NCBI RefSeq assembly: GCF_003991155.1
Contig: NZ_CP031293.1
Reading direction: 5' to 3' (one strand)
Length of the DNA: 64,000 bases
From: Escherichia coli
GTDB lineage: Bacteria; Pseudomonadota; Gammaproteobacteria; Enterobacterales; Enterobacteriaceae
The notes beneath the pieces are model-generated. The model was not told the DNA's origin and ran no database searches. It saw only the letters and a list, made by a program, of their open reading frames with translations. Of this stretch, positions 9,764 to 26,863 are shown piece by piece. The position numbers were made by a program, and so were the translations under genes. Positions within the stretch are counted from its first letter, which is position 1; every line of letters starts with the position of its first letter.

Positions 9764-11013
<1,250 letters not shown>

Positions 11014-11016
11014 CCA

Positions 11017-11385
11017 CTACAATGAGAGCATAAGTACACCTGCCGTCATTTCTGGTACGGCAACGCCCCCCGGTGTATAAGCTGTCCCGTTAATGATGAT
11101 GTCACAGGCGGGTTTCAGGGGGGCGAGGTCGCTTTCGCGCAGTACCGGAGATGTGTTCATCTCCCCGGCATACTCATCTTCCACACACAGCGGTAGCGGC
11201 GGGTTTTCGATAAGTTGGGTTTGCCACTGACCATTTTCGTCCCGTTGCAGCCGGAAGCCCGTTTTCATGGCGATAACGCGGTGACGTTCGCTATGTTTAT
11301 CATCCATCGCATATTCTATCGCTGAAAACGGCGTCAGGTTACGAAATTCCATATTGCACCCCGATCCCGTCTGTACCTGTCGCAA
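11017..11385 (-). pseudogene. N-terminal fragment of a gene truncated at the IS right end
   Basis: ORF runs into the IS right terminus and hits a stop inside the inverted repeat. N-terminus MEFRNLTPF... is tentatively reminiscent of T6SS-associated DUF2169-type proteins, from memory only. Confidence 0.35.
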
Positions 11386-11790
11386 AACATAATTCTACAG
11401 ATGGCACAGTATCCCCCTGATACAGGTAAAAACTTATTTCACGGAAACCGGCATAGCAAACTGGATGACACAATACCGGGCAAAACGATAAGTATGGTTA
11501 CTATATGAAACGGAATACTCCCGTTTCGTATTATTTTTTTTGACTGATATCAACGGGACGAATTAACTGACAGGATATTTACTGGAAAGTGTCTGCATAT
11601 TGCTCAATATATTTTTAATGGAAATGTATTCTCCATTAATATTTATGGTGTGATTGTGTTTCCCTGTGTGTCAGCTTCCGCTAAACCCCTTGCTGCAAAT
11701 TACCGATCATTGTATTGTTGCGCCGCGCCTGCAAAATCAGGCGTCGGGATTGGAACCCTGATAAGTGTTACAGGCGACATATAGCGCATT

Positions 11791-12426
11791 TTGCGTCTTT
11801 TTTATGTCGTGCGTCTGGCTGCATCTCAATGGTGGGCTGGACGGGGGCGTCGCAAGACGCGCCGGTTTCCTGTAACACCGGTAGTTCCAACCCCGTTCAG
11901 TTCACCACCAATGAGATTGGAACCTCTGGTGGTGGAATTACCACCCGTTACAGGAGGCTATCCTATGGTTATCATCCTTTCCCCTGACTGCGACTTACTT
12001 TCCATCCCCTTCAGTGCCACCACGGATTTCACCGATCTGGCCGACTACTGCGATCGCTTCGCTGAAACCCTGATCGAATGCCACGATCCGGCGCTGAAAA
12101 TGGCGCTTTATGGCAGGATCAACGCCAGCCTTGCGCTGCTGCGTCCCTCGTTGGGCGAGCCGATCCCGCTGCACCTGATCGACCGTTTCATTGTGGACAC
12201 GCTTCCCGACGTTTCACCGCGCTTTGAACCCGGCGCAGGGCTGCTCTGTGACTACTGTCTGGCGCTGACGCAGGTATTAAGCGGGCGGTCGCTGCTGCCG
12301 GAAACCGAAACCACACTGACCGGGTTGCTGTGCGAACTGGTCTGGTATTTTGCCGCCGACCTTAAAGCGCCGCAGTGGCTGCGCACCGCTGATGGCTTAC
12401 AGGTTATTGACGGGGGGACGGTATGA
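11791..12426 (+). CDS. hypothetical protein, translationally coupled to the downstream Ner-like gene
   Basis: GC-rich ORF whose stop overlaps the Ner-like start (ATGA at 12423-12426); true start uncertain. Confidence 0.35.
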   Translation: MRLFYVVRLAASQWWAGRGRRKTRRFPVTPVVPTPFSSPPMRLEPLVVELPPVTGGYPMVIILSPDCDLLSIPFSATTDFTDLADYCDRFAETLIECHDPALKMALYGRINASLALLRPSLGEPIPLHLIDRFIVDTLPDVSPRFEPGAGLLCDYCLALTQVLSGRSLLPETETTLTGLLCELVWYFAADLKAPQWLRTADGLQVIDGGTV

Positions 12427-12677
12427 TGCAACCGGACTGGCATCCCGCCGATATCATGGCAGCACTGCGAAAACGTGGTACGTCGCTGGCAGCGGTTTCC
12501 CGCAAAGCGGGACTGGCGTCCGCCACACTGGCAAACGCGCTGAGCCGCTCCTGGCCGCGTGGCGAAAAACTCATTGCGGATGCGCTGGAAACATCACCGG
12601 AAATTATCTGGCCGTCCAGATATTTCGATGATCAGGGCAACCGTATTGTAAGGCTCATGCGAAAGCAGTGCTCCTGA
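12423..12677 (+). CDS. Ner/Nlp-family DNA-binding protein
   Basis: DWHPADIMAALRKRGTSLAAVSRKAGLASATLANALSRSWPRGEKLIADAL...IWPSRY matches E. coli Nlp / Mu Ner closely from memory. Confidence 0.8.
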   Translation: MMQPDWHPADIMAALRKRGTSLAAVSRKAGLASATLANALSRSWPRGEKLIADALETSPEIIWPSRYFDDQGNRIVRLMRKQCS

Positions 12678-12796
12678 TGACAGAAGTGTCAGAAACACGA
12701 TTACAGTAAAATCAGGCTCTCCCGGCTCTCTGCCTGCTTCTGCTGGCGGAGAGCCGGGAGAAGACAAGCGAAGCGCGGCAGGATGCCATCCCGCTG

Positions 12797-13099
12797 TTGA
12801 TAACAGTCACAACCGGAGTCGTTTTTATGCACATGTTTAATCCACCCCATCCGGGTGACGTCCTTCGCGATTATCTGGACGGCGTGAGCATCACGCAGGC
12901 CGCTTCCCGGCTTCAGGTATCGCGCTCGCGGTTATCCCGTATCCTCAATGGACATGCACCAGTGACGGCTGATATGGCGCTACGTCTGGCGGCGCTGCTG
13001 AATACCCGCGCTGAACTGTGGACGGGGATGCAGTCTGAGTATGGCCTCTGGCAGGCGTCACAAAAACCACGACCCGTTATCCGGTCATTGCGGGGTTAA
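12797..13099 (+). CDS. HigA-family HTH (XRE-type) antitoxin-like protein, no adjacent HigB-like toxin ORF
   Basis: NPPHPGDVLRDYLDGVSITQAASRLQVSRSRLSRILNGHAPVTADMALRLAALLNT...ELW is the HigA/VapI pattern; likely start at internal Met (12827 or 12833). Confidence 0.7.
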   Translation: MITVTTGVVFMHMFNPPHPGDVLRDYLDGVSITQAASRLQVSRSRLSRILNGHAPVTADMALRLAALLNTRAELWTGMQSEYGLWQASQKPRPVIRSLRG

Positions 13100-13186
13100 C
13101 TCAGCATTTTACATTCACAAATACACGATAAAATCAGGGGGAAAACCAATATCCAGAAAAATGAGTTTCCCCTTTCTGCGCCAGAA

Positions 13187-15521
13187 ATAACGGTGTAATC
13201 TCCCTCCTGCATTGTCGCCTTCGGGCACCCTTTGGCTTCATGGTCTGCAAGAAGCCCCTGATTTATCAGGATGACCAGCCCTTACTACCGGTACGACCTC
13301 CGCAATACCGGAACGCGAAAGCGTTTGAGGCTAAGAGTACATACACCCGAACGGCTTCATCGTCATTGCTTAACGGCAACAGTCTTCACCGGCTGAACGG
13401 CTTTTCTTTGCCGGAATTTCCCGACTGCCCCATACCCAGCTGAAAACAGCGCCCTTTACATGACGGGCTGCGGCCTGCATTGCCGTCAGGCTTTGCTGCC
13501 GCGTGACCGTCATTCTGCACCAGAAACGCAACGTTTACCCCCTGCACCAGATGAGGCGTCACTTTGGTCGCGCCAGCGAAAAAGCAAAGTGACGCCGTAC
13601 AACATACCGCCGCAAGCCGCGCCAGTTCTGGCCTGCGTCCTGTTTCCGCCGTCTGACATGCCCTTTGGGGCGCTGTCAGTCCAGAGTAAAGGAGAAAAAG
13701 ATCGATACCGAGGGGGGCACGACGCCCCGGAGATACCCCTGCTTCGTCAGGCAGTCTGTACCGCGTACAGCCTGAAACTCCCTAAACCTCAACAATCAGC
13801 CACTCCGGCGTGAAGGTATCGTTCTGGCGCAGCCAAAAAGCACACGCCGGAGACTGTTTGTTTTTTGTTGCAGGGGGTAGTTATGAGCAAATTAAGCAGT
13901 GAAATGAAGGCGCTGGCGAAAAAAGCAGGCGGTAGTTTCAGAACGGTGGACTACCGTATCCATGCCACGAAGCGGTTCAGTCAGCATTTACGCGAACTGA
14001 ATATTCAGATCCAGCGGGTGGAGCAGATCAAAGTTCGCCATATCGAATGCTATATTCAGGAGCGGCTGGAGCAGGATATTGGCCTGCGCACGCTGCAAAA
14101 CGAAATGGCGGCGCTGCGGGCCGTGCTGAGGCTGGCGGGACGCCGGCAGGTGGTGGAGCATCCGCGCCTGACCAATAAGGCGCTGGGGCTGTCAGGTGCT
14201 TCGCGCAACGGCACGCGTCGCGCCATCACGCCGGAACATTATGAAAAAGTGATGGAGAACGCCCGCGCACAGGATGCGGGGCTGGCGGCAGCGGTGGAGA
14301 TCGCGCGACTGATGGGATTACGCTCGCAGGAGGCGGTACAGAGTTCACAGTCGCTGAAAACGTGGCTGAAAGCCATTTCCCGCGGCGAAACCCGGCTGAA
14401 AGTGGTGTTTGGCACCAAAGGCGGGCGTCCGCGTTACACGACGCTCCTGGACGCTGGCGCAGTCAGGAAGGCGGTGGAAAACGCATTACCGATCGCCAGA
14501 CAGCGCAATGGCAGGCTGATCGACAAGCCAGACCTTAAAACGGCGCTGGAGAGCTGGCACAAACAGGCCATTAAGGCGGGGCTGAAAGGGGAATTTTCCC
14601 CGCACTCGCTGCGTTATGCGTGGGCGCAGGACGCGATCCGCCATTATCTGGCGCAGGGATTCAGCGAAAAGGAATCGCTGGCGCTGACGGCGACGGATCT
14701 GGGTCATGGCGACGGTCGCGGCCGCTGGGTGAAACAGGTGTACGGCTACCGCTGGAAGGAGGAATAACGGCTTTCATGAATGGCGCAAAATAGTACGTTA
14801 CTGCGTAACGACAGCGATTTATCGTACCCTCTGTACCGGATCTGGCGCAGGGGGCGAGCGGGTTTGTATTGTGAAAATATCGTTACAGCATGACGAATAA
14901 ATATCAATAGCTCAGATTTTCCTGCTGAACCAATGTAGCTCGCCGGAATATTATAGTGATTACCCGGTAATCACTCGAAACGATCCCGATTAATAGCTGG
15001 TGTTTCAATCGTTTTACCGATATTACAGGTACAGGGTCGGGAAATTTTAAAATGTAAACTCACCGAGGCATCACATTAATTCTGGCGCAGGATTATATCT
15101 GAATAATTCTCTCTGTGTTTTCCTGCATCCTGTGACATATATTGCATGGTCACAGAATGTCTCATGATTTTATAAAAAATGCTGCGACGGTTTTTGACAT
15201 CATAACCTGCTGCATATAGATTAATAATTTTCGGTGCTTCATGTTATTTTTTTGCGCTCTGTGATCGTTATCTGGTGGTGAAAATACAATCTGGTGCAGA
15301 CTGTCATGGTGCATTTCTGAATAAACTGGTTGCGCCAGAAAGGGAAAGGGCCATAAAGGTTAAGGGGCGATAAGGGTAACAGCGCCTGACCGGAAAGGGC
15401 CGAAAACCAAAGAGCCAGAAACTGGCGCAGTCCTGAATGTGTGAAGTGGCGAGACGCTGGCGCAGATAACCGATCTTCCGGGGCTGGTGCAGATTATTTC
15501 GTCTCTGTATATCTGGTGCAG
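13187..15521. repeat. dispersed array of at least 10 copies of the decamer TCTGG(C/T)GCAG
   Basis: Copies at 13187-13195 (inverted), 13823-13832, 14841-14850, 15081-15090, 15289-15298, 15330-15338 (inverted, degenerate), 15421-15430, 15456-15465, 15483-15492, 15512-15521; mostly in non-coding DNA flanking the integrase-family gene. Confidence 0.7.
13883..14767 (+). CDS. tyrosine-recombinase (phage integrase) family protein, short form
   Basis: C-terminal FSPHSLRYAWAQDAIRHYL...GRWVKQVYGY has the HxxR...H...Y pattern of tyrosine recombinase catalytic domains; AGGGGG Shine-Dalgarno precedes ATG 13883. Confidence 0.5.
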   Translation: MSKLSSEMKALAKKAGGSFRTVDYRIHATKRFSQHLRELNIQIQRVEQIKVRHIECYIQERLEQDIGLRTLQNEMAALRAVLRLAGRRQVVEHPRLTNKALGLSGASRNGTRRAITPEHYEKVMENARAQDAGLAAAVEIARLMGLRSQEAVQSSQSLKTWLKAISRGETRLKVVFGTKGGRPRYTTLLDAGAVRKAVENALPIARQRNGRLIDKPDLKTALESWHKQAIKAGLKGEFSPHSLRYAWAQDAIRHYLAQGFSEKESLALTATDLGHGDGRGRWVKQVYGYRWKEE

Positions 15522-17265: not shown

Positions 17266-17341
17266 TGGCTCCTCTGACTGGACTCGAACCAGTGACATAC
17301 GGATTAACAGTCCGCCGTTCTACCGACTGAACTACAGAGGA
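17266..17341 (-). tRNA. tRNA-Asn (GUU)
   Basis: 76-nt reverse complement of TCCTCTGTAGTTCAGTCGGTAGAACGGCGGACTGTTAATCCG...GGAGCCA; anticodon loop CUGUUAA. Confidence 0.95.
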
Positions 17342-19089: not shown

Positions 19090-19165
19090 TCCTCTGTAGT
19101 TCAGTCGGTAGAACGGCGGACTGTTAATCCGTATGTCACTGGTTCGAGTCCAGTCAGAGGAGCCA
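19090..19165 (+). tRNA. tRNA-Asn (GUU)
   Basis: Sequence identical to the minus-strand copy at 17266-17341, ends in CCA. Confidence 0.95.
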
Positions 19166-19169
19166 AATT

Positions 19170-19203
19170 CAAAAAAGCCTGCTTTCAAGCAGGCTTTTTG
19201 CTT
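19170..19203 (+). terminator. intrinsic terminator after tRNA-Asn
   Basis: AAAAGCCTGCTTTCAAGCAGGCTTTTTGCTTTC stem-loop plus T-run. Confidence 0.6.
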
Positions 19204-19220
19204 TCTAATTACCAACGCTC

Positions 19221-20156
19221 TTAAAACATCTGTCTTGAACCAGAACTAATTTGCACAGGCATTCCCGATCGACGTTGCAACGCAGCATTTGCGCGATTTA
19301 CATCAACTTCTTGCCCGTTGATAAACGCCCGCAAAGATGGGGTTACCGGCAATGGTACTTTTCGGTCAGACTCATATTCTGCACGATTGCGCGACAGCGG
19401 CTCATGAACTTCCAGCCACTTTGAACCATCCGGTTCCGTTGTGTATTTCACTGGCTGATCAATAATTTGTACACGAGTGCCTACAGGAACATTATCAAAC
19501 AGATATTTGATATCGTCATTGCGCAGACGAATACAGCCCTGACTTACCCGGAGCCCAATACCAAAATTGGCATTGGTACCGTGGATGGCATATAGCCTGC
19601 CAATATAAATCGCATACAGCCCCATGGGATTATCAGGCCCCGCAGGAACAAATGCGGGCAAACTCTCCCCTCGTTTCGCATATTCGCGCCGAGTGTTCGG
19701 CGTTGGCGTCCAGGTTGGAGCTTCTTGTTTACGTTCAACGGTAGTCACCCAGTTACGCGGGGTTTCTCGCCCAGCCTGGCCGATACCAATAGGAAAGACT
19801 TCCACAGTATTACTGTCTGGTGGGTAGTAATAAAGACGCATCTCAGCGACGTTAACCACAATCCCTTTACGAACAGTGGCGGGCAAAATCAGTTGCTGCG
19901 GAATGGTGAGTTGCGAACCTGACTTCGGCAAGAAAACATCAGCGCCCGGATTCGCTTCCAGCATGTTACTTAACCCTTGCCCGTATTGTGCGGCAAAAGT
20001 CTCCAGCGGCTGGGTATTGTGATCAGGAACAGTTACAGTAAACGACTGCCCCACTAAACGGCTACCCTCTGGAGGTAATGGATAAGTTACCGCCAGGCTA
20101 GTATGGCTGGCAAAAAGCAGAGCAAATGAGCAAAGAATATTTACACGACGCATCAT
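19221..20156 (-). CDS. ldtA: L,D-transpeptidase LdtA (ErfK)
   Basis: 311 aa with signal peptide; YkuD-type domain motifs ([19 protein letters not shown]); position upstream of cobT as in E. coli. Confidence 0.8.
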
Positions 20157-20217
20157 GTCCCTTTCCTATGTCGCGAAAGCTATCCATTAAGTATAGCTTT
20201 TATCAGACTTTTCGTTT

Positions 20218-21297
20218 TTAACTGTTCAAATCAGAAGTCGTATTCCCCGGTAGAACAATATTACTGGCAGCAAGTTCGCCCATGTTGTTGTATATCGCAC
20301 AAGCAGCTTCGATGATGGGCATCGCCAGAGCTGCGCCACTCCCCTCACCTAAACGCATCTCCATATTGAGATAAGGCTCCAGCCCCAAATGCGACAGCGC
20401 TATACGCGCCCCTTTTTCTGCCGACAGGTGAGAAGGAATGAGATACGGTTTGATTGCAGGAGACATCTGGCAGGCTGCGAGCGCAGCAGCATAAGAAAGA
20501 AATCCATCCAGCAACACGGGTAAACCGCAGGAAGCAGCGCCTAACATCACGCCAGCCATTCCGACCAAATCAAATCCACCCACTTTTGCCAGAACATTAA
20601 CGCCATCCTGCGGATTTGGCTGATTCAACGTAATCGCCCGGCGCACAACATCAATTTTATTAGCCAGTTTATCTGTCGGCAGGTTTGCGCCAATCCCAAC
20701 CACTTCTTCAGGATCCCGGCCAGTGATTGTGCTGACTATTGCTGCTGCCGGTGTCGTGTTTGCCATCCCCAGTTCACCTACACCAAACAGCGTGACACCG
20801 TTTTTTGCCAGCTCCCGCGTATAACATATGACGTCCAAAAGCAACTTTTCAGCCTGACGGCGACTCATTGCCGGAGCTGAAGCAATATTGCCGCTACCTC
20901 GTGCGACACGCATGTTGATAAGCCCGGGGATAGGCTCAGCAGTATCAATACCAACATCAATTACGTGGACGTTAGCGCCCGCTTGTGCTGCCAGCACACA
21001 CACGCCGGTTGTTCCGCGGGTCATATTTTCAGCCTGAATGGCTGTGACTTCTTTTGGGGAAATAGCGACCCCTTCCTCCCAGACGCCGTGATCGGCACAC
21101 ATAACCAGTACCGCTTTTTTGCCCACATGCGGTATGCCATTCAACCCCGGCATTCCCGCCAGTTGTACGCCAAGCGCCTCCAGCCTTCCCAGGCTACCAA
21201 CAGGTTTGAGTAACCCGTCAATATGCCGTTGTGCACGCGACATAGCGGCAGGATCGATGGCAGGGATCGTATTCAGTAAATTGGCAAGTGTTTGCAT
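20218..21297 (-). CDS. cobT: nicotinate-nucleotide--dimethylbenzimidazole phosphoribosyltransferase CobT
   Basis: 359 aa; N-terminus [19 protein letters not shown]... and gene order cobU-cobS-cobT. Confidence 0.85.
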
Positions 21298-21308
21298 GTC
21301 ACGTCTCT

Positions 21309-22052
21309 TTATAGCAGTGCCAGCAGGAAGACCAGTTCACCAAGCTCTATGGCTGCTCCCAGCGTATCGCCGGTTTGCCCGCCCAGCGTACGTTTGAGAA
21401 GCTGACCGAGGATGAAAATCGCCACCATCGTCACCACCATAGCAGCCACACCATGCATACCCGGCAATAATACGGCAGCAAAAATAGCGGCTAAGCCGAG
21501 TGTGACGCAGGTTTGTCGCCCATCAATTTTGCCAATGAACACATTGCCAAGCCCTTCTTCCCGCGCATAACGATGACGATACATCAATAATGCGGCAGTC
21601 CCGCGGCTGACCGCACATGCTGCCGCCAGCGATGCAAGGATCGGTTCGCCACGCAGAGCCAACTCGCTTAACACCAGAATCTTTGCCAGTACCACAAAAA
21701 TCAATGCCAGACCGCCGTGGGTGCCTAAACGGCTATCACGCATGATTTCCAACATGCGATCGCGGCTACGTGCAGAAAATACGCCATCACAGGTATCAGC
21801 GAGGCCGTCCAGGTGGAATCCCCCGGTCATCAGCGCCAGCATAAGTACGCTAAACAGTGCCGCCAGTGGTACGTCACACCATGCCTGCAGCACCATGAAG
21901 ACCAGCCCGCTAATCGCGCCAAGCAATAATCCAATCAAAGGAAAAGTAATAATACCGCGAGAATAATGCTCGAAATCCAGTCCCTGGGACCAGCGACGCG
22001 GTACAGGCAGACGCGTAATAAATGAGAGCATCGCCCAAAATAATTTACTCAT
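21309..22052 (-). CDS. cobS: adenosylcobinamide-GDP ribazoletransferase (cobalamin synthase) CobS
   Basis: Polytopic membrane protein; likely start [18 protein letters not shown]; between cobU and cobT. Confidence 0.85.
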
Positions 22053-22594
22053 TTGATTTTTACTCCAATACACGAAACCACCAGCCATACTTCATTTGCC
22101 GCAGCGGCCAACTGCTGGTTTACCCGCCCGGCAATATCACGAAAATGTCGTGCCAGACGACTCTCCGGCACAATCCCCATTCCCACTTCGTTAGTCACTA
22201 ATACAACCTTTGCGGGGCAACGTTGGCAGGCAGCAATCAACGACTGAATCTCAGCATTAATCGCCTGTTCCATCGCCTGATAATCCCATTCATCAGGGTC
22301 TTTATCGCCGCCATAATCAAACAACAGATTAGTCACCATTGTGGTAACGCATTCCAGCAACACAGCCTCATTCGGGTTAATGTCTGCATGAATTAATTCA
22401 TCAAGATGTTGCCAGCGCTCCACTGTGCGCCAGTGCGCCGGGCGGCCTTTCCGATGATGTTCTATCCGTGCAGCCATCTCATCATCAAGGATTTGCGAGG
22501 TGGCGATATACAGAACCTGTGAAGAGTCCCCAATAAGCGCTTCTGCGTGGCGACTCTTCCCGCTCCGTGCTCCACCTGTCACCAAAATCATCAT
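22049..22594 (-). CDS. cobU: adenosylcobinamide kinase / adenosylcobinamide-phosphate guanylyltransferase CobU
   Basis: 181 aa; P-loop [18 protein letters not shown]. Confidence 0.85.
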
Positions 22595-22727
22595 ACCGAC
22601 TCCTGATTCAATTGTATGATGGTATTCATTGAACAGAACAATGGATCCCCCACCGTTGCTGACCGCAAAACATTTACGCGATTAATACTGCGCGTAATAT
22701 AATTAAAAATCCAGCATTCTCAATCCA

Positions 22728-23234
22728 TTACGAAAGAAGATGGCATTGCGGAATAGCCAGACTTCCTCGTGTTAACGTCCGACAAAATGCGTCATTGACA
22801 GCGGTTTCTCTGGCATGACAGATTTCATTCAGATAATGGATTAATGCTACAGCCCCACCAGCCGGACCAGTCAGCAAACGGGCATTGTGTTCTGTAATCA
22901 AAATTACCGTCGTTCCCTCAGAATGAGCGAGCCATTCTGGTACGGATATCTCGCTTTCAGCTGCTATCAATAGCAGCACTGAATAATCGCTATACGCATC
23001 TGATAACGATTGCACAGGCCCACCGTCAAAAGGCTGGAAATCTTGCTGCCAGTCCTCACCAACCAAACAGGTTATTGGCAATATTTCCGCCAGATGTTTC
23101 GCCAGATCCACATCTCCAGATAAGAGGCAAAAAAGAGCTATCGATTCGGGTTTTATCGTTTTCATGCCCCTCGCCCTCCACTTAATTTCCTGTAATGGCG
23201 GTCTGGTTGATAAGCCATGAAACAAGATTGCCAC
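22728..23234 (-). CDS. hypothetical protein upstream of cobU (possible cbi-region remnant)
   Basis: 168-aa ORF between pocR and cobU, where Salmonella carries the cbi operon; no motif recognised. Confidence 0.3.
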   Translation of the reverse strand: MAILFHGLSTRPPLQEIKWRARGMKTIKPESIALFCLLSGDVDLAKHLAEILPITCLVGEDWQQDFQPFDGGPVQSLSDAYSDYSVLLLIAAESEISVPEWLAHSEGTTVILITEHNARLLTGPAGGAVALIHYLNEICHARETAVNDAFCRTLTRGSLAIPQCHLLS

Positions 23235-23649
23235 ACCTTAAGTGCAGCCCTGGTGCCTGTCGGCACTGCGATGAAAGAACTAAATGATGCCGCCATACCC
23301 TGATCCTTTCAGGGTGGTAGGGGTATAAAGACGCGCCTGTACTCTACCGGACGCTTCCGGGCAACCCACTTCCCACCGAAGTTGTTGGTATTGACTGACT
23401 GGCTGGTCTTCTGGCTTAGCGTCATCCTCTCCCGACCTTCCCAATCTCGCGATCAGTGGCATTTTCGGGTTTGTCAGCATTACAGCAGCGGGGGCTGCGA
23501 GGGATTTTCACCCTCTTCCCAGGCACAAATGTGCCACACCTGTCAGCGTATGTTATGAGCTGATTTCACTTTTCCCATAACAGGGAAATAACGTTAATTA
23601 TTCATTCCAGAGTTTATTTAAACCGTCCTCTTTTTTTGGGGCATTTACT

Positions 23650-24564
23650 CTATACCGTTTCCATCGCCGCATTATCACTCACTTGCTGTCGATACACCTG
23701 CGGCGTAACCTGATAAGTCTGACGGAAAACTTTGCAAAAATAACTTGTTTGCGAAAAACCTAAATTACGCGCAATGCTGGCGATGCTCCAGTCACTATGG
23801 CACAGTAACTCACGAGCGCTGGCCATCCGTTGTTGGTTTACCCACGCATTAAACCCGATTCCATGGTATTTCTTAAATAACTTACTGAAATAATAAGGGC
23901 TTAGATAAACGTGCGAGGCGACATCTTCCAGACGCAAATCGTCTGATAAATGCGCATCAATATAACGTAAAGCTTTTTTCATTTTATTGTCGTGGGGACC
24001 AGGCGCACGAGTCTGGCGCAACGAATCTGACTGAGATTTGTTCTCTTTAATAACCACAAAATTGAGTTGTTTTTTTAGGCAATTTTCTACAATCAACTTC
24101 AACAAATCCGCAGAGGCCATAACTCTTGAGTAATCCATCTCAGGGACTTTGCGAAATTCATTAAGTAATTCGGGATCTGCCTGCCAGCAATCATCGACAT
24201 TCAGAATATCGACCAAATCGACATCATCATTACGCAGACGAACTTGCCCGCACAATACAAAACCAACTAAATGTCCGGCGATTACCAGTGGAATAGAGAA
24301 ATCGGTTAATCCGGCATGACAGCGATAAATACAAGGCTGATCGGATTTAGAGGCTTCCAGCCCCCCACAACGATCGCTCATGCGACATCGAGTGCTCATC
24401 TGAGGGTGTTGCCGCATCATCTGACAAAATGGAGTGAAGTTAAACAGCTCGGAAATTTCATCGCCGTGAATATTGACCACGACAACCGCAAGGCTGGTCG
24501 CCTGCGCAAAATCCTGCGCGATTTTATTAATGAGTTCTGAATTAAGTGTCGCCGCAGAAATCAT
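23650..24564 (-). CDS. pocR: AraC-family regulator PocR (propanediol / cobalamin regulon activator)
   Basis: N-terminal sensory region plus C-terminal AraC HTH (YFSKLFKK...SIASIARNLGFSQTSYFCKVFRQ); divergent from the pdu operon, adjacent to pduF. Confidence 0.85.
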   Translation of the reverse strand: MISAATLNSELINKIAQDFAQATSLAVVVVNIHGDEISELFNFTPFCQMMRQHPQMSTRCRMSDRCGGLEASKSDQPCIYRCHAGLTDFSIPLVIAGHLVGFVLCGQVRLRNDDVDLVDILNVDDCWQADPELLNEFRKVPEMDYSRVMASADLLKLIVENCLKKQLNFVVIKENKSQSDSLRQTRAPGPHDNKMKKALRYIDAHLSDDLRLEDVASHVYLSPYYFSKLFKKYHGIGFNAWVNQQRMASARELLCHSDWSIASIARNLGFSQTSYFCKVFRQTYQVTPQVYRQQVSDNAAMETV

Positions 24565-24766
24565 GATAAAACCTCCCAGTTAATTTATTGTTATAGCAAA
24601 ACAATTGTTTTACATTTAATCTTCACATCATCCTTGATGATTTACTGACGAGAAGCACAAAGGACAATAACAAAAGCCTCCGTGAAGCGGGAGACTTTTT
24701 AATAAGTTCGGAAAGCAGATCACAAACAGTAAAAAAATAAACGTTTATAACTGCCAGATTATTTCA

Positions 24767-25576
24767 TTATTCGCTGATTTCTTTAGGCGTTACACTATTG
24801 ACAGGTAAATTCTTTGCAATGAGATAGCGATAAATCGCCGCACCAACACATGCCCCAATGATCGGTGCAATAATGGGTACAATGAAATAAGGAATATTGC
24901 GTCCACCAGTCATCGCAATTTCCCCCCAACCCGCAAACCAGGTGAAAATTTTAGGTCCAAAATCACGCGCTGGATTCATGGCAAAACCGGTTAATGGTCC
25001 GGTAGAAGCACCAATAACAGCAACCAGAATACCAATAAGTAAAGGCGCAAGCGGTCCTTTGGGTACGCCATTACCGTCATCGGTCAACGCCATAATCAAC
25101 CCCATTAACATGGACGTTATGACCACTTCGACCAACGCAGCTTGCCATACATTAATCGCCGCTGCTGGATAAGTACTGAAGATACTGGCGAGTTGTAAAC
25201 TTTCTGCGCTACCACGCACTATATTGTGAGCAGATTCAAAATCGATAAACAAACTGCTGTAGAGAGAATATGCCAGAACCGCACCACCAAAGGCACCCGC
25301 TAATTGCGCCACACAAAATGGCAGCACTTTACGGGCTGGGAAAGAGGCAAACAGCCACAGAGCAATGGTAACTGCCGGGTTGAGATGAGCGCCGGAAATA
25401 CCTGCCGTAAGGTAAACAGCAAGCGAAATCCCTAACCCCCATATGATACAAATTTCCCACAGTCCCAGACTTGCCCCGGCAACTTTCAGGGCGCACAAAC
25501 AACCAATGCCAAAAAAGAGGAACAGTCCGGTGCCCAAAAACTCGGCAACGCATTGCGCCTTGAGTGAATCATTCAT
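24767..25576 (-). CDS. pduF: propanediol diffusion facilitator PduF (MIP/aquaporin family)
   Basis: NPA motif (HLNPAVT), multi-pass membrane; likely start MNDSLKAQC... at 25576. Confidence 0.85.
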   Translation of the reverse strand: MNDSLKAQCVAEFLGTGLFLFFGIGCLCALKVAGASLGLWEICIIWGLGISLAVYLTAGISGAHLNPAVTIALWLFASFPARKVLPFCVAQLAGAFGGAVLAYSLYSSLFIDFESAHNIVRGSAESLQLASIFSTYPAAAINVWQAALVEVVITSMLMGLIMALTDDGNGVPKGPLAPLLIGILVAVIGASTGPLTGFAMNPARDFGPKIFTWFAGWGEIAMTGGRNIPYFIVPIIAPIIGACVGAAIYRYLIAKNLPVNSVTPKEISE

Positions 25577-26009
25577 AGTGACACCTTCTTTACGGAGTTT
25601 TTCTTTATCAGCCAACTATGCGCTGATTGTTGTGTATACCGAGCGCAACTATAAAAAATTGCTCTGCAGAAAATATTGCCAACATGCATGACAGACTCGT
25701 GTAAAAATCGTGCTAACATAACAAATTATTGTCATTGCCGAATCATGCAACACAGCTTTAATCAGTGTTGAAGTAATAATTTCCACCAAACTTTTACAAT
25801 AAAAAATTGCCATCATGACATAATAAAATTGAAACAAATATCACAGTTCCTTCCTCGAACCAAACTCAACGAAATATTATTCGCGATTAAACTCACTAGC
25901 CAACGCAATTAATTCACATTGAAACATCCACAAAACAACCAATAAATTAACAACATATAGTTCATAAAAGCAATTTTATTATATTTGTTCTCTAGGTAAT
26001 GACTCCAAC

Positions 26010-26513
26010 TTATTGATAGTGTTTTATGTTCAGATAATGCCCGATGACTTTGTCATGCAGCTCCACCGATTTTGAAAACGACAGCGACTTCCGTCCCAGC
26101 CGTGCCAGGTGCTGCCTCAGATTCAGGTTATGCCGCTCAATTCGCTGCGTATATCGCTTGCTGATTACGTGCAGCTTTCCCTTCAGGCGGGATTCATACA
26201 GCGGCCAGCCATCCGTCATCCATATCACCACGTCAAAGGGTGACAGCAGGCTCATAAGACGCCCCAGCGTCGCCATAGTGCGTTCACCGAATACGTGCGC
26301 AACAACCGTCTTCCGGAGCCTGTCATACGCGTAAAACAGCCAGCGCTGGCGCGATTTAGCCCCGACGTATCCCCACTGTTCGTCCATTTCCGCGCAGACG
26401 ATGACGTCACTGCCCGGCTGTATGCGCGAGGTTACCGACTGCGGCCTGAGTTTTTTAAATGGCGGAAAATCGTGTTGAGGCCAACGCCCATAATGCGGGC
26501 GGTTGCCCGGCAT
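26010..26513 (-). CDS. insB: IS1 InsB (transposase catalytic part; InsAB' by -1 frameshift at the A6C motif)
   Basis: 167 aa InsB sequence; TTTAAAAAAC motif present on the coding strand. Confidence 0.9.
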
Positions 26514-26707
26514 CCAACGCCATTCATGGCCATATCAATGATTTTCTGGTGCGTACCGGGTTGAGAAGCGGTGTAAGTGAACTGCAGTTGCCATGTTTTA
26601 CGGCAATGAGAGCAGAGATAGCGCTGATGTCCGGCGGTGCTTTTGCCGTTACGCACCACTCCGTCAGTAGCTGAACAGGAGGGACAGCTGATAGAAACAG
26701 AAGCCAC
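26432..26707 (-). CDS. insA: IS1 InsA
   Basis: [43 protein letters not shown]...; 91 aa. Confidence 0.9.
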
Positions 26708-26863
26708 TGGAGCACCTCAAAAACACCATCATACACTAAATCAGTAAGTTGGCAGCATCACCTGTTCTCTATTAATTTTTCTCATTAGCCGAGTAAGTCA
26801 GCCATTCTTTTTCCTCGCTTTTTTTTATAGTCATATCGTCAAAAAAATCCAGGCGAGGTCTTT

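Follow-up and report, generated by a model that had tools for sequence, protein, structure and literature searches.

The locus between cobU and pocR raises the question of what an Escherichia coli chromosome retains at the place where Salmonella would carry the cbi operon; in the classical picture, E. coli is simply without cbi and pdu. The window, i.e. the whole stretch of 64,000 nucleotides that was analyzed (contig NZ_CP031293.1), had previously been read from its letters only, and this sequence-only reading described an unassigned 168-aa ORF next to a plain spacer of ~400 bp, seen as a possible cbi remnant from the 3' end of the operon or as a small new gene sharing a transcript with cobUST. 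Both elements are real. The ORF listing of the window places the ORF, with a GTG start, at 22728–23234 on the minus strand between cobU and pocR, and 415 bp (23235–23649) separate the pocR stop from this GTG. The features of the locus, all on the minus strand and given in the direction of transcription, are as follows.

23650–24564, minus strand: pocR, on the same strand and directly 5' of the riboswitch (Pfam PocR, E=8.1e-46, and HTH_AraC; RefSeq annotation).
23559–23649, minus strand: short spacer from the pocR stop to the riboswitch, 91 nt in Escherichia versus ~330 nt in Salmonella and Citrobacter.
23384–23558, minus strand: cobalamin (AdoCbl) riboswitch aptamer, formerly the cbiA leader (Rfam RF00174; riboswitch in the RefSeq annotation).
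23297–23383, minus strand: expression platform, including the RBS-sequestering hairpin (23297–23315) that abuts the cbiA AUG.
23162–23296, minus strand: uORF44, 44 codons from the kept cbiA start codon (ATG GCG GC).
22728–23165, minus strand: cbiG', a 145-aa ORF whose residues 1 to ~125 are assigned by homology to a diverged CbiG N-terminal domain.
22733–22790, minus strand: interval of the putative second deletion junction, with cbiG codon ~125–137 joined to ~143 nt before the cbiP end.
22595–22732, minus strand: cbiP', by alignment the decayed final ~140 nt of cbiP, in the untranslated gap 5' of cobU.
22696–22723, minus strand: promoter-like site TTGAGA-16-TATATT (pattern match) within cbiP', ~100 nt upstream of cobU.
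22049–22594, minus strand: cobU (Pfam CobU, E=8.7e-63; RefSeq annotation).
20218–22594, minus strand: salvage genes cobU-cobS-cobT, with cobU first, kept in the window.

Sequence comparison assigns the "unassigned" ORF to cbiG, a mid-operon gene of which it is the remaining 5' third. The ORF matches positions 1–126 of the 351 positions of the NCBIfam CbiG profile NF004463 with 70.9 bits, against a cut-off of 546, while a Pfam scan gave no CbiG domain at E<=1; the former statement that the ORF has no assignable motif thus holds for Pfam and fails for NCBIfam. A Pfam match to Nup96 (E=0.016) was dismissed as chance, and a PDB sequence search with the ORF returned nothing below E=1.7. The true start is likely the ATG at 23165, giving 145 aa, because RefSeq/PGAP calls it in identical genomes, the CbiG homology sets in there and a GGAGG lies 9 nt upstream. 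Homology to CbiG runs out at ~22791–22830, the final ~20 residues lie past the deletion junction, and the stop codon is followed by an untranslated gap of 133 bp to cobU. Comparison of CbiP and CbiO with the interval had been proposed as a check; when the Cbi proteins of a distant relative were searched, only CbiG matched, and a CbiP/CbiO search would miss cbiG'. Neither clear homology to an unrelated protein nor a lack of similarity to cbi genes, the two outcomes named beforehand as speaking against a cbi origin, was encountered.

Much of the CbiG enzyme is gone from this ORF. The three domains CbiG_N, CbiG_mid and CbiG_C (~350 aa), all carried by the full-length relative P0056, are not found together in cbiG', and the cbiF-cbiG-cbiH context is missing as well, cbiA-cbiF and cbiH-cbiP being absent from the window. 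In a set of 38 full-length CbiG sequences, 69 N-terminal columns are near-invariant (>=95%); all seven remnants depart from CbiG at 30 of these and agree with it at 18. The cbiG' family has conserved motifs of its own, e.g. GEDWQQ and DYSVL, unlike those of true CbiG, and the AlphaFold model shows a compact alpha/beta domain to residue ~120, the alignment behind the model being mostly true CbiG. The C-terminal tail varies, giving proteins of 136, 144, 145 and 156 aa. No family of free-standing cbiG' relatives outside Escherichia was found among 1.84 billion representatives; a 25-residue match in Enterobacter sp. EA-1 (L086) turned out to come from a complete cbi operon, the assembly being rich in errors, and not from a second remnant.

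Downstream of cbiG', similarity to cbiP starts at window position 22732. Local alignment of cbiP' with the cbiP 3' ends of C. sedlakii, C. werkmanii and S. arizonae scored 50–58 against 24–25 +/- 2.3–2.8 for shuffles, a blastn match (22625->22501) supports the region, and cbiP' is kept in nearly all E. coli. The idea of a cbi remnant at the operon's 3' end was therefore right about the remnant and wrong about the gene, which is cbiG, since only the 133 bp before cobU derive from the cbiP 3' end. A 13-residue match to the C-terminus of CbiJ (22666–22704, E=0.067) did not recur when closer references were used, and it was set aside as chance. The promoter-like site inside cbiP' came from a scan in which it agreed with the consensus at 10 of 12 positions; four Escherichia species share its -35 hexamer but not its -10 hexamer. 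On these alignments, deletions have taken nearly all of cbiA-cbiP, and we slightly favor an interval that is the scar of two old deletions, of ~5.9 and ~7.6 kb, in the cbiA-cbiP genes of the Escherichia ancestor.

The supposed plain spacer proved to be occupied, holding a cobalamin riboswitch (109 bits), an RBS hairpin and the cbiA start codon. The Rfam RF00174 match covers model positions 1–189 of 189 and scores 109.4 bits against a gathering score of 31.5, and the scores of all Escherichia (109–113 bits) fall in the range of Salmonella and Citrobacter (107–114). The element lies with its expression platform in the 5' leader position of B12-related genes, cobUST being downstream. Blastn aligns this cob leader with that of Salmonella and Citrobacter at 82–88% nucleotide identity down to window position 23288, through cbiA codon 3, and the match restarts only at 23562. 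The RBS hairpin (ACCCUGA-AAGGA-UCAGGGU), which adjoins the AUG, is kept in all Escherichia, and predictions for E. coli and for S. arizonae both give it a 7-bp stem; by these comparisons riboswitch and hairpin are conserved as well as in the species with a full operon. Identity to the E. coli aptamer is 93–95% in other Escherichia and 87% in E. fergusonii, and that of the expression platform is 92–95% across Escherichia, E. fergusonii included, whereas the uORF and ORF tail reach 73–82%. Because aptamer and platform exceed the uORF and ORF tail in identity and the bit scores equal those of functional homologs, the riboswitch is probably still under selection, with putative AdoCbl binding and repression. 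On the mRNA strand no promoter-like or terminator-like site was seen in 23559–23649, and the Salmonella promoter-like site TTGTCA-17-AAAAAT (L019, 3468–3496) falls in the segment missing from Escherichia.

The start codon of uORF44 sits under the RBS-sequestering structure of the riboswitch, and its TGA overlaps the ATG of cbiG' (ATGA) in E. coli, E. whittamii, L009 and L010, in all of which the frame has 44 codons. The E. fergusonii uORF has 49 codons and stops at the native cbiF stop position, 20 nt inside cbiG', so that stop and start overlap there by 20 nt. This end point is the sole hint on the origin of 23167–23287, which scored no better than shuffles against the cbiA-cbiF DNA of four references; the uORF peptides after codon 3 had no significant similarity to the CbiF C-terminus. 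A terminator-like hairpin in the uORF (23230–23248) was considered as a translation-sensitive attenuator and rejected, its folding z being -0.2 in E. coli and +0.8 in E. whittamii and its stem not being conserved.

The scar is found in E. coli, E. fergusonii, E. albertii, E. ruysiae, E. marmotae and E. whittamii; the architecture was read directly in E. whittamii, L009, L010 and E. fergusonii, while E. albertii, E. ruysiae and E. marmotae are named members of the family. Full-length conservation in six Escherichia species marks the ORF as more than a chance reading frame. It is carried, as a "hypothetical protein", by ~12% of complete E. coli genomes and by all other Escherichia species, and in none of 5,426 complete E. 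coli genomes was the remainder of the cbi operon present. IS-associated deletions have removed the ORF wholly or partly from most E. coli: in ~88% of complete genomes the riboswitch and the front of the ORF are gone while cobUST is still there, and in E. coli deletion variants ORF loss always accompanies pdu loss. K-12-type genomes keep the 3' 172 nt of the ORF and cbiP' at 92–93% identity, labelled a pseudogene by PGAP ("cobalamin biosynthesis protein"), and have IS remnants or an island in place of the ORF 5' part, riboswitch, pocR and pdu operon; relative to that locus, the window is the complete, older state. In E. fergusonii, cobUST is missing in 25 of 25 contigs (L005 and 24 others), and the riboswitch (113 bits), the uORF and an open cbiG' of 156 aa are kept. 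For the E. fergusonii spacer between cbiG' and ldtA, the only match was a borderline one of 37 nt to cobS (score 34 versus a shuffle maximum of 30). No description of the cbiG' remnant was found in the full-text literature, the search of which did not extend to Lawrence and Roth 1995/1996, where the K-12 fragment may be mentioned.

Both small frames have stayed open far beyond neutral expectation, and their amino-acid sequence is weakly constrained. The stops and frameshifts of a neutrally decaying pseudogene are absent from five species copies despite nucleotide divergence of 16–37%, and all cbiG' indels are multiples of three. The neutral probability of finding no stop is 0.06–0.10 per core-species pair and 0.009 versus E. 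fergusonii, and in neutral simulation all five copies remained open in none of 20,000 runs (P<1e-4). Within E. coli, uORF44 and cbiG' are both intact in all seven alleles read directly, and 45 sampled full-length matches show no length change over 621 bp. Omega for cbiG' is 0.47–0.61 against a stop-free neutral median of 0.7–0.8, and it is unevenly spread, with 0.29–0.48 in codons 1–66 (variable sites by codon position 13/8/22) and 0.58–0.86, effectively neutral, from codon 67 to the end among core species. The deep comparison of E. coli with E. fergusonii gives 0.34 (P<=0.007); most pairwise values among core species are not significantly off stop-free neutrality (P 0.02–0.3). Segregating sites within E. 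coli comprise 19 nonsynonymous and 11 synonymous ones, and amino-acid identity between Escherichia species is 68–75% for the ORF versus 87–98% for neighbouring genes. The earlier suggestion of a small gene may hold; the frame has been open far longer than neutral decay allows.

Taken as a whole, the locus is read, with a probability of roughly 0.55, as a streamlined and still B12-switched leader, made of the uORF and then cbiG', ahead of cobUST. The unit would still work as a B12 OFF switch, in which AdoCbl closes the RBS hairpin so that the uORF is left untranslated, and with it cbiG', coupled to the uORF through the ATGA overlap. Without B12, ribosomes would coat this stretch of ~570 nt and transcription would get to cobUST. 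This transcription is probably read-through from pocR, as the Salmonella-type cob promoter segment is missing, and cobUST may also have its own promoter in the site within cbiP', in line with the retention of cobUST in most E. coli after loss of the upstream part along with pdu. The ORF would then be kept mainly as a translated leader relaying the switch, and not as a CbiG enzyme. Several observations weigh on this account. The untranslated gap of 133 nt means that there is no direct translational coupling of cbiG' to cobU, and the mRNA strand of uORF and cbiG' showed no C-rich Rho-loading stretch (C/G mostly below 1), hence no obvious loading region backs a polarity mechanism. The ~88% of complete E. 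coli with cobUST and without the riboswitch indicate that the unit is dispensable for cobUST as such, the loss of cobUST in E. fergusonii means that a relay to these genes cannot explain retention there, and the coding-like constraint on codons 1–66 points towards a role at the protein level.

Such a role is the substance of a more tentative explanation, in which CbiG' would be an exapted small protein, a stand-alone, genus-specific CbiG N-terminal domain under B12-riboswitch control and tied to the B12/propanediol (pdu) economy. Its task might, for example, be corrinoid binding or hand-over, with the protein made only at low AdoCbl and the riboswitch kept for its sake, a proposal that we hold with low confidence. 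It would account for an ORF open in six species against neutral odds of P<1e-4, for the riboswitch, uORF and cbiG' that E. fergusonii keeps without cobUST, for the low omega of codons 1–66 and of the deep comparison, for the family's own motifs and the compact predicted domain, and for the ORF always being lost along with pdu in E. coli deletion variants. Several observations count against it: constraint is weak, with most core-species values not significantly off stop-free neutrality, nonsynonymous sites outnumber synonymous ones within E. coli, codons from 67 onward evolve effectively neutrally among the core species, the tail length is variable, and 30 of 69 near-invariant CbiG columns are replaced. 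There is, moreover, no Pfam match and no free-standing family outside Escherichia, and the structural model draws on an alignment dominated by true CbiG.

That the ORF is a plain decaying cbiG pseudogene with no role in cis or in trans, the riboswitch alone or nothing at all being functional, we regard as unlikely. The ORF has only one of the three CbiG domains, the pathway as a whole is gone, amino-acid divergence is fast relative to the neighbours, polymorphism within E. coli looks nearly neutral, part or all of the ORF has been lost with IS association in most E. coli, and PGAP calls the K-12-type fragment a pseudogene; decay of this kind, however, is hard to reconcile with the simulations, with five copies free of stops and frameshifts, with every indel being a multiple of three, with the conserved uORF length and overlapping stop and start, and with omega significantly under neutral expectation in the deep comparison. 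In Firmicutes, B12 riboswitches regulate pocR or eut regulators via RNAs, and by analogy the riboswitch might now serve pocR/pdu, either from the 3' region of the pduF-pocR transcript, where it would sense B12, or as the source of a regulatory RNA, the remnant ORFs being incidental. Its position, 91 nt from the pocR stop and without an intervening promoter or terminator that could be recognised, the lost cob-promoter segment and its conservation in E. fergusonii without cobUST would suit this arrangement. We nevertheless consider it very improbable, for the conservation of platform, RBS hairpin and start codon is exactly that of a translational OFF switch, the openness of two downstream frames is left unexplained and the mechanism has no sequence support.

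Several consequences follow for the genus. The "hypothetical protein" of ~12% of complete E. coli genomes and of all other Escherichia species gains an identity. The Escherichia ancestor appears to have kept pdu, pocR, the B12 riboswitch and cobUST while ~13.5 kb of de novo synthesis genes between them were deleted, and later deletions, several independent ones of which some were IS-associated, would have removed pdu and the riboswitch from most E. coli; this history of retention and later loss refines the classical picture. For E. coli strains that are pdu-positive and Crohn's-associated, both propanediol and B12 may control B12 salvage. Should the frames be kept for relaying the riboswitch or as a new protein, the rebuilding of regulatory leaders from gene debris could be studied here in a simple natural system. 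E. fergusonii has no coding sequence other than cbiG' left under its riboswitch and, were exaptation true, cbiG' would be a rare, datable case of a gene fragment becoming a new regulated gene.

Among known systems, the K-12-type fragment upstream of cobU is the same locus as the ORF of the window. Compared with CbiG itself (cobalt-precorrin-5A hydrolase; NF004463; structure 3eeq), cbiG' has 145 aa versus ~351 and lacks both the middle domain and the CobE-like C-terminal one. In the GATGIAVR-xAP motif the conserved R and A have gone with a 4-residue deletion, TGPAGGAV stands where CbiG has SGHxGGAN, and the protein lies under Pfam detection and far under the NCBIfam cut-off. The closest regulatory counterpart is the cob (cbiA) leader of Salmonella enterica, which controls translation of cbiA and is homologous in aptamer, platform, RBS hairpin and start codon (82–88% nucleotide identity), with an equal Rfam score and the same place downstream of pocR. 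E. coli differs in keeping three cbiA codons that open a 44-codon frame without a detectable homolog, in missing ~240 nt of upstream leader together with the promoter, and in having, the cbiG' remnant aside, only cobUST as downstream genes. In M. tuberculosis, a B12 riboswitch upstream of ppe2 acts via a translated uORF that is needed by the downstream gene (PMC11260477). That case is experimental whereas the Escherichia one is inferred from sequence, and the Escherichia leader frames are remnants of biosynthetic genes, the last of which ends 133 nt before the next intact gene; in both leaders, a riboswitch-controlled start codon opens a short frame that precedes and overlaps the next gene.

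Between cobU and pocR, the unassigned ORF and the gap described by the sequence-only reading are both present in the window, in a region that is 100% identical to many RefSeq genomes (E. coli chromosome). The ORF is annotated by RefSeq/PGAP from an ATG at 23165 as a 145-aa "hypothetical protein" (here cbiG'), and a cobalamin riboswitch is already annotated in the gap. The locus is laid out as follows.

19221-20156, minus strand: ldtA
20218-22594, minus strand: cobT, cobS and cobU
22595-22732, minus strand: cbiP', the last ~143 nt of cbiP (alignment score 50-58 vs 24-25 +/- 2.3-2.8 for shuffles)
22696-22723: promoter-like site inside cbiP'
22728-23234, minus strand: flagged ORF, separated from pocR by a gap of 415 bp
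23162-23296, minus strand: uORF44, a 44-codon frame opened by the retained cbiA start codon
23384-23558, minus strand: full-length cobalamin riboswitch aptamer (Rfam RF00174, 109.4 bits vs a gathering score of 31.5)
23650-24564, minus strand: pocR
Beyond pocR in minus-strand gene order: pduF, then an IS1 element, then pduA and the following pdu genes

Judged by its sequence, the flagged ORF is the first third of cbiG. A Pfam search of the ORF returned no match; however, its residues 1-119 aligned with profile positions 1-126 of 351 of NCBIfam NF004463 (cobalt-precorrin-5A hydrolase, E=1e-19), and when Cbi proteins from complete operons were used in translated searches, CbiG alone matched, the best being C. 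sedlakii CbiG (E=1.8e-27, 46% identity). The blastn match to the complete-operon loci begins one base ahead of the cbiG ATG. Searched exhaustively with HMMER, 1.84 billion representatives yielded only 30 relatives, namely Escherichia remnants and fragments together with enterobacterial CbiG. The AlphaFold model of the product (pLDDT 74.5) comprises an alpha/beta domain to residue ~120 followed by a disordered tail. Because the middle and C-terminal domains of CbiG are absent and 30 of the 69 near-invariant CbiG columns (at least 95% conserved) are replaced in all remnants, the predicted product cannot be the CbiG enzyme; among these changes, the GATGIAVR-xAP motif has lost four residues and SGHxGGAN has become TGPAGGAV. 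The ORF is homologous to CbiG but failed every test for being that enzyme.

The presumed spacer is evidently the cob leader. Window 23562->23288 was 82-88% identical (blastn) to the pocR-cbiA leader of the complete operons of C. sedlakii, C. amalonaticus, Salmonella arizonae and C. werkmanii, and the match stops three codons into cbiA (GGGTATGGCGGC). The hairpin ACCCUGA-AAGGA-UCAGGGU, which ends at the cbiA AUG, occurs in E. coli and in Salmonella, and its folding is predicted in both. As a member of RF00174 the riboswitch is ordinary, with scores of 109-113 bits throughout Escherichia, E. fergusonii included, and 107-114 in Salmonella and Citrobacter. The TGA of uORF44 overlaps the cbiG' ATG as ATGA, and no homolog was detectable for its 120 nt past codon 3; in E. 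fergusonii the equivalent frame (uORF49) is 49 codons long and terminates where the native cbiF stop lies. cbiP' spans the 133 bp from the ORF stop to cobU plus the final few bases of the ORF, and its homology across 22595-22732 therefore places the second deletion junction within 22733-22790. Relative to C. sedlakii, ~5.9 kb is missing from cbiA codon 4 to the cbiF end, and ~7.6 kb from cbiG codon ~130 to cbiP -143.

The layout of pocR, riboswitch, uORF, cbiG', cobUST and ldtA is common to E. whittamii and two further Escherichia lineages (L009, L010), and named sources of family members include E. albertii, E. ruysiae, E. marmotae, the cryptic clades and Shigella dysenteriae. In E. fergusonii (locus L005 and all 24 further contigs) the order is pocR, riboswitch, uORF49, cbiG' (156 aa) and ldtA, cobUST being deleted except for the last ~12 nt of cobT. 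The full interval is present in 643-644 of 5,426 complete E. coli genomes, and the rest of the cbi operon in 0 of 5,426. About 65% of a spread sample of E. coli are of the K-12 type, in which only window 22595-22899 is left beside IS remnants or IS5, and other sampled E. coli carry deletions fusing the ORF to a pduV remnant. From this distribution, the scar is genus-wide and the window preserves its older, complete form. Since these deletions differ, pdu was lost several times independently in E. coli.

The truncation point 22899, inside cbiG', is shared by roughly two thirds of the E. coli genomes sampled and directly adjoins an IS4-family transposase remnant; in K-12, IS5 lies near the truncation. 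In L005 (10472-10697), 227 nt separate cbiG' from ldtA, cobUST is wholly absent, and homology to the E. coli cobT-ldtA junction is confined to the ~72 nt immediately ahead of ldtA. Although E. fergusonii carries pdu, it would be unable to add the lower ligand to cobinamide. When L005 6500-12500 was compared with window 19200-25600, pduF, pocR, cbiG' and ldtA were as distant from E. coli as Salmonella/Citrobacter genes (dS 1.1-3.9 and 73-78% nucleotide identity, against dS 0.3-0.7 for other Escherichia), a pattern suggesting either a haplotype that diverged long ago or transfer of the truncated cob-pdu region in its entirety. A locus labelled Escherichia sp. MOD1-EC7003 (L023 2528-11457) carries full-length cbiA-cbiH adjoining pocR, with PocR 84% identical to that of the window, and either the genome is mislabelled or its lineage has an intact operon resembling that of Citrobacter.

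Elsewhere in the window, a 768-bp IS1 copy with a 9-bp target duplication (25995-26762) is inserted where the divergent promoters of pduF and pduA lie; NZ_CP029747, otherwise 99.99-100% identical, lacks it, and the insertion may affect how pdu or pocR is induced in this strain. The interval from pocR to pduF holds a match to the enterobacterial sRNA STnc230 (76 bits, 24625-24708, plus strand), oriented antisense to the two genes; every Escherichia, Salmonella and Citrobacter locus examined has it in the equivalent position. Rfam matches to isrC, isrK, C4 antisense RNA and EFASI cluster at 9832-13825, tRNA-Asn genes lie at 17269-17341 and 19090-19162, and a pseudogenised integrase is nearby in an identical RefSeq genome; together these features probably mark a P4-like island inserted at a tRNA-Asn gene.

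Comparison of E. coli with three other species of the genus (E. whittamii, L009, L010) gave identities of 0.93-0.95 for the aptamer, 0.92-0.95 for the expression platform, 0.79-0.82 for uORF44, 0.84-0.89, 0.79-0.83 and 0.73-0.77 for cbiG' codons 1-66, codons 67-119 and tail, 0.83-0.89 for cbiP' and 0.88-0.89 for cobU; purifying selection acts on the riboswitch. The dN/dS of cbiG' was 0.47-0.62 among the core species (E. coli and these three) and ~0.34 against E. fergusonii, with neighbouring genes at 0.02-0.18. The within-genus values are only marginal (P 0.02-0.3), as stop-free neutral simulations themselves give an NG86 median of 0.7-0.8; the E. fergusonii comparison is significant (P<=0.007). 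Omega was lowest in codons 1-66 (0.29-0.48) and effectively neutral from codon 67 to the end. Among seven E. coli alleles, nonsynonymous and synonymous segregating sites numbered 19 and 11 in cbiG' and 5 and 1 in the uORF; the amino-acid sequence of cbiG' is nearly unconstrained. Pure neutral decay is, even so, quite improbable: under neutrality, 140 codons would stay free of stops with a probability of 0.06-0.10 per core pair and 0.009 against E. fergusonii, all five copies stayed open in 0 of 20,000 neutral simulations, every cbiG' indel is in frame, both frames are intact in 7/7 E. coli alleles, and no length change occurred in 45 sampled full-length E. coli matches. The reading frame is clearly protected.

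The spacer from the pocR stop to the aptamer is 91 nt in Escherichia, whereas it is ~330 nt in Salmonella and Citrobacter. The one promoter-like site detected upstream of the Salmonella leader, ~480 nt before cbiA, sits in the segment absent from Escherichia; its position agrees with the 468 nt reported for the cob leader. As no promoter-like or terminator-like site was found on the mRNA strand of the E. coli and E. fergusonii spacers, the riboswitch is probably transcribed by read-through from pocR. We infer that AdoCbl would close the RBS hairpin and switch off translation of uORF44 and, by coupling, of cbiG', while without B12 the ~570-nt stretch would be translated and upstream transcription could get to cobUST. 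The promoter-like site in cbiP' could supply B12-independent basal cobUST expression, which fits the survival of cobUST wherever the upstream part is deleted.

Weak points of such a relay are that no C-rich Rho-loading stretch was seen, that an untranslated 133-nt gap precedes cobU, and that E. fergusonii keeps the riboswitch and open frame without cobUST. The main rival, a protein-level function of CbiG', is kept alive by this last case and by the lower omega of codons 1-66; we regard it as possible but doubtful. In the literature covered, outside which older key papers lie, we found no description of the genus-wide reduced operon (riboswitch, cbiA'-uORF, cbiG', cbiP', cobUST), nor of the open upkeep of its remnant frames. 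The result accounts for a hypothetical protein and sharpens the picture of cob/pdu history in Escherichia, the apparently protected frames being the surprising part. For the relay, a precedent is found in M. tuberculosis, where a B12 riboswitch acting via a translated uORF required by the downstream gene has been demonstrated (PMC11260477).
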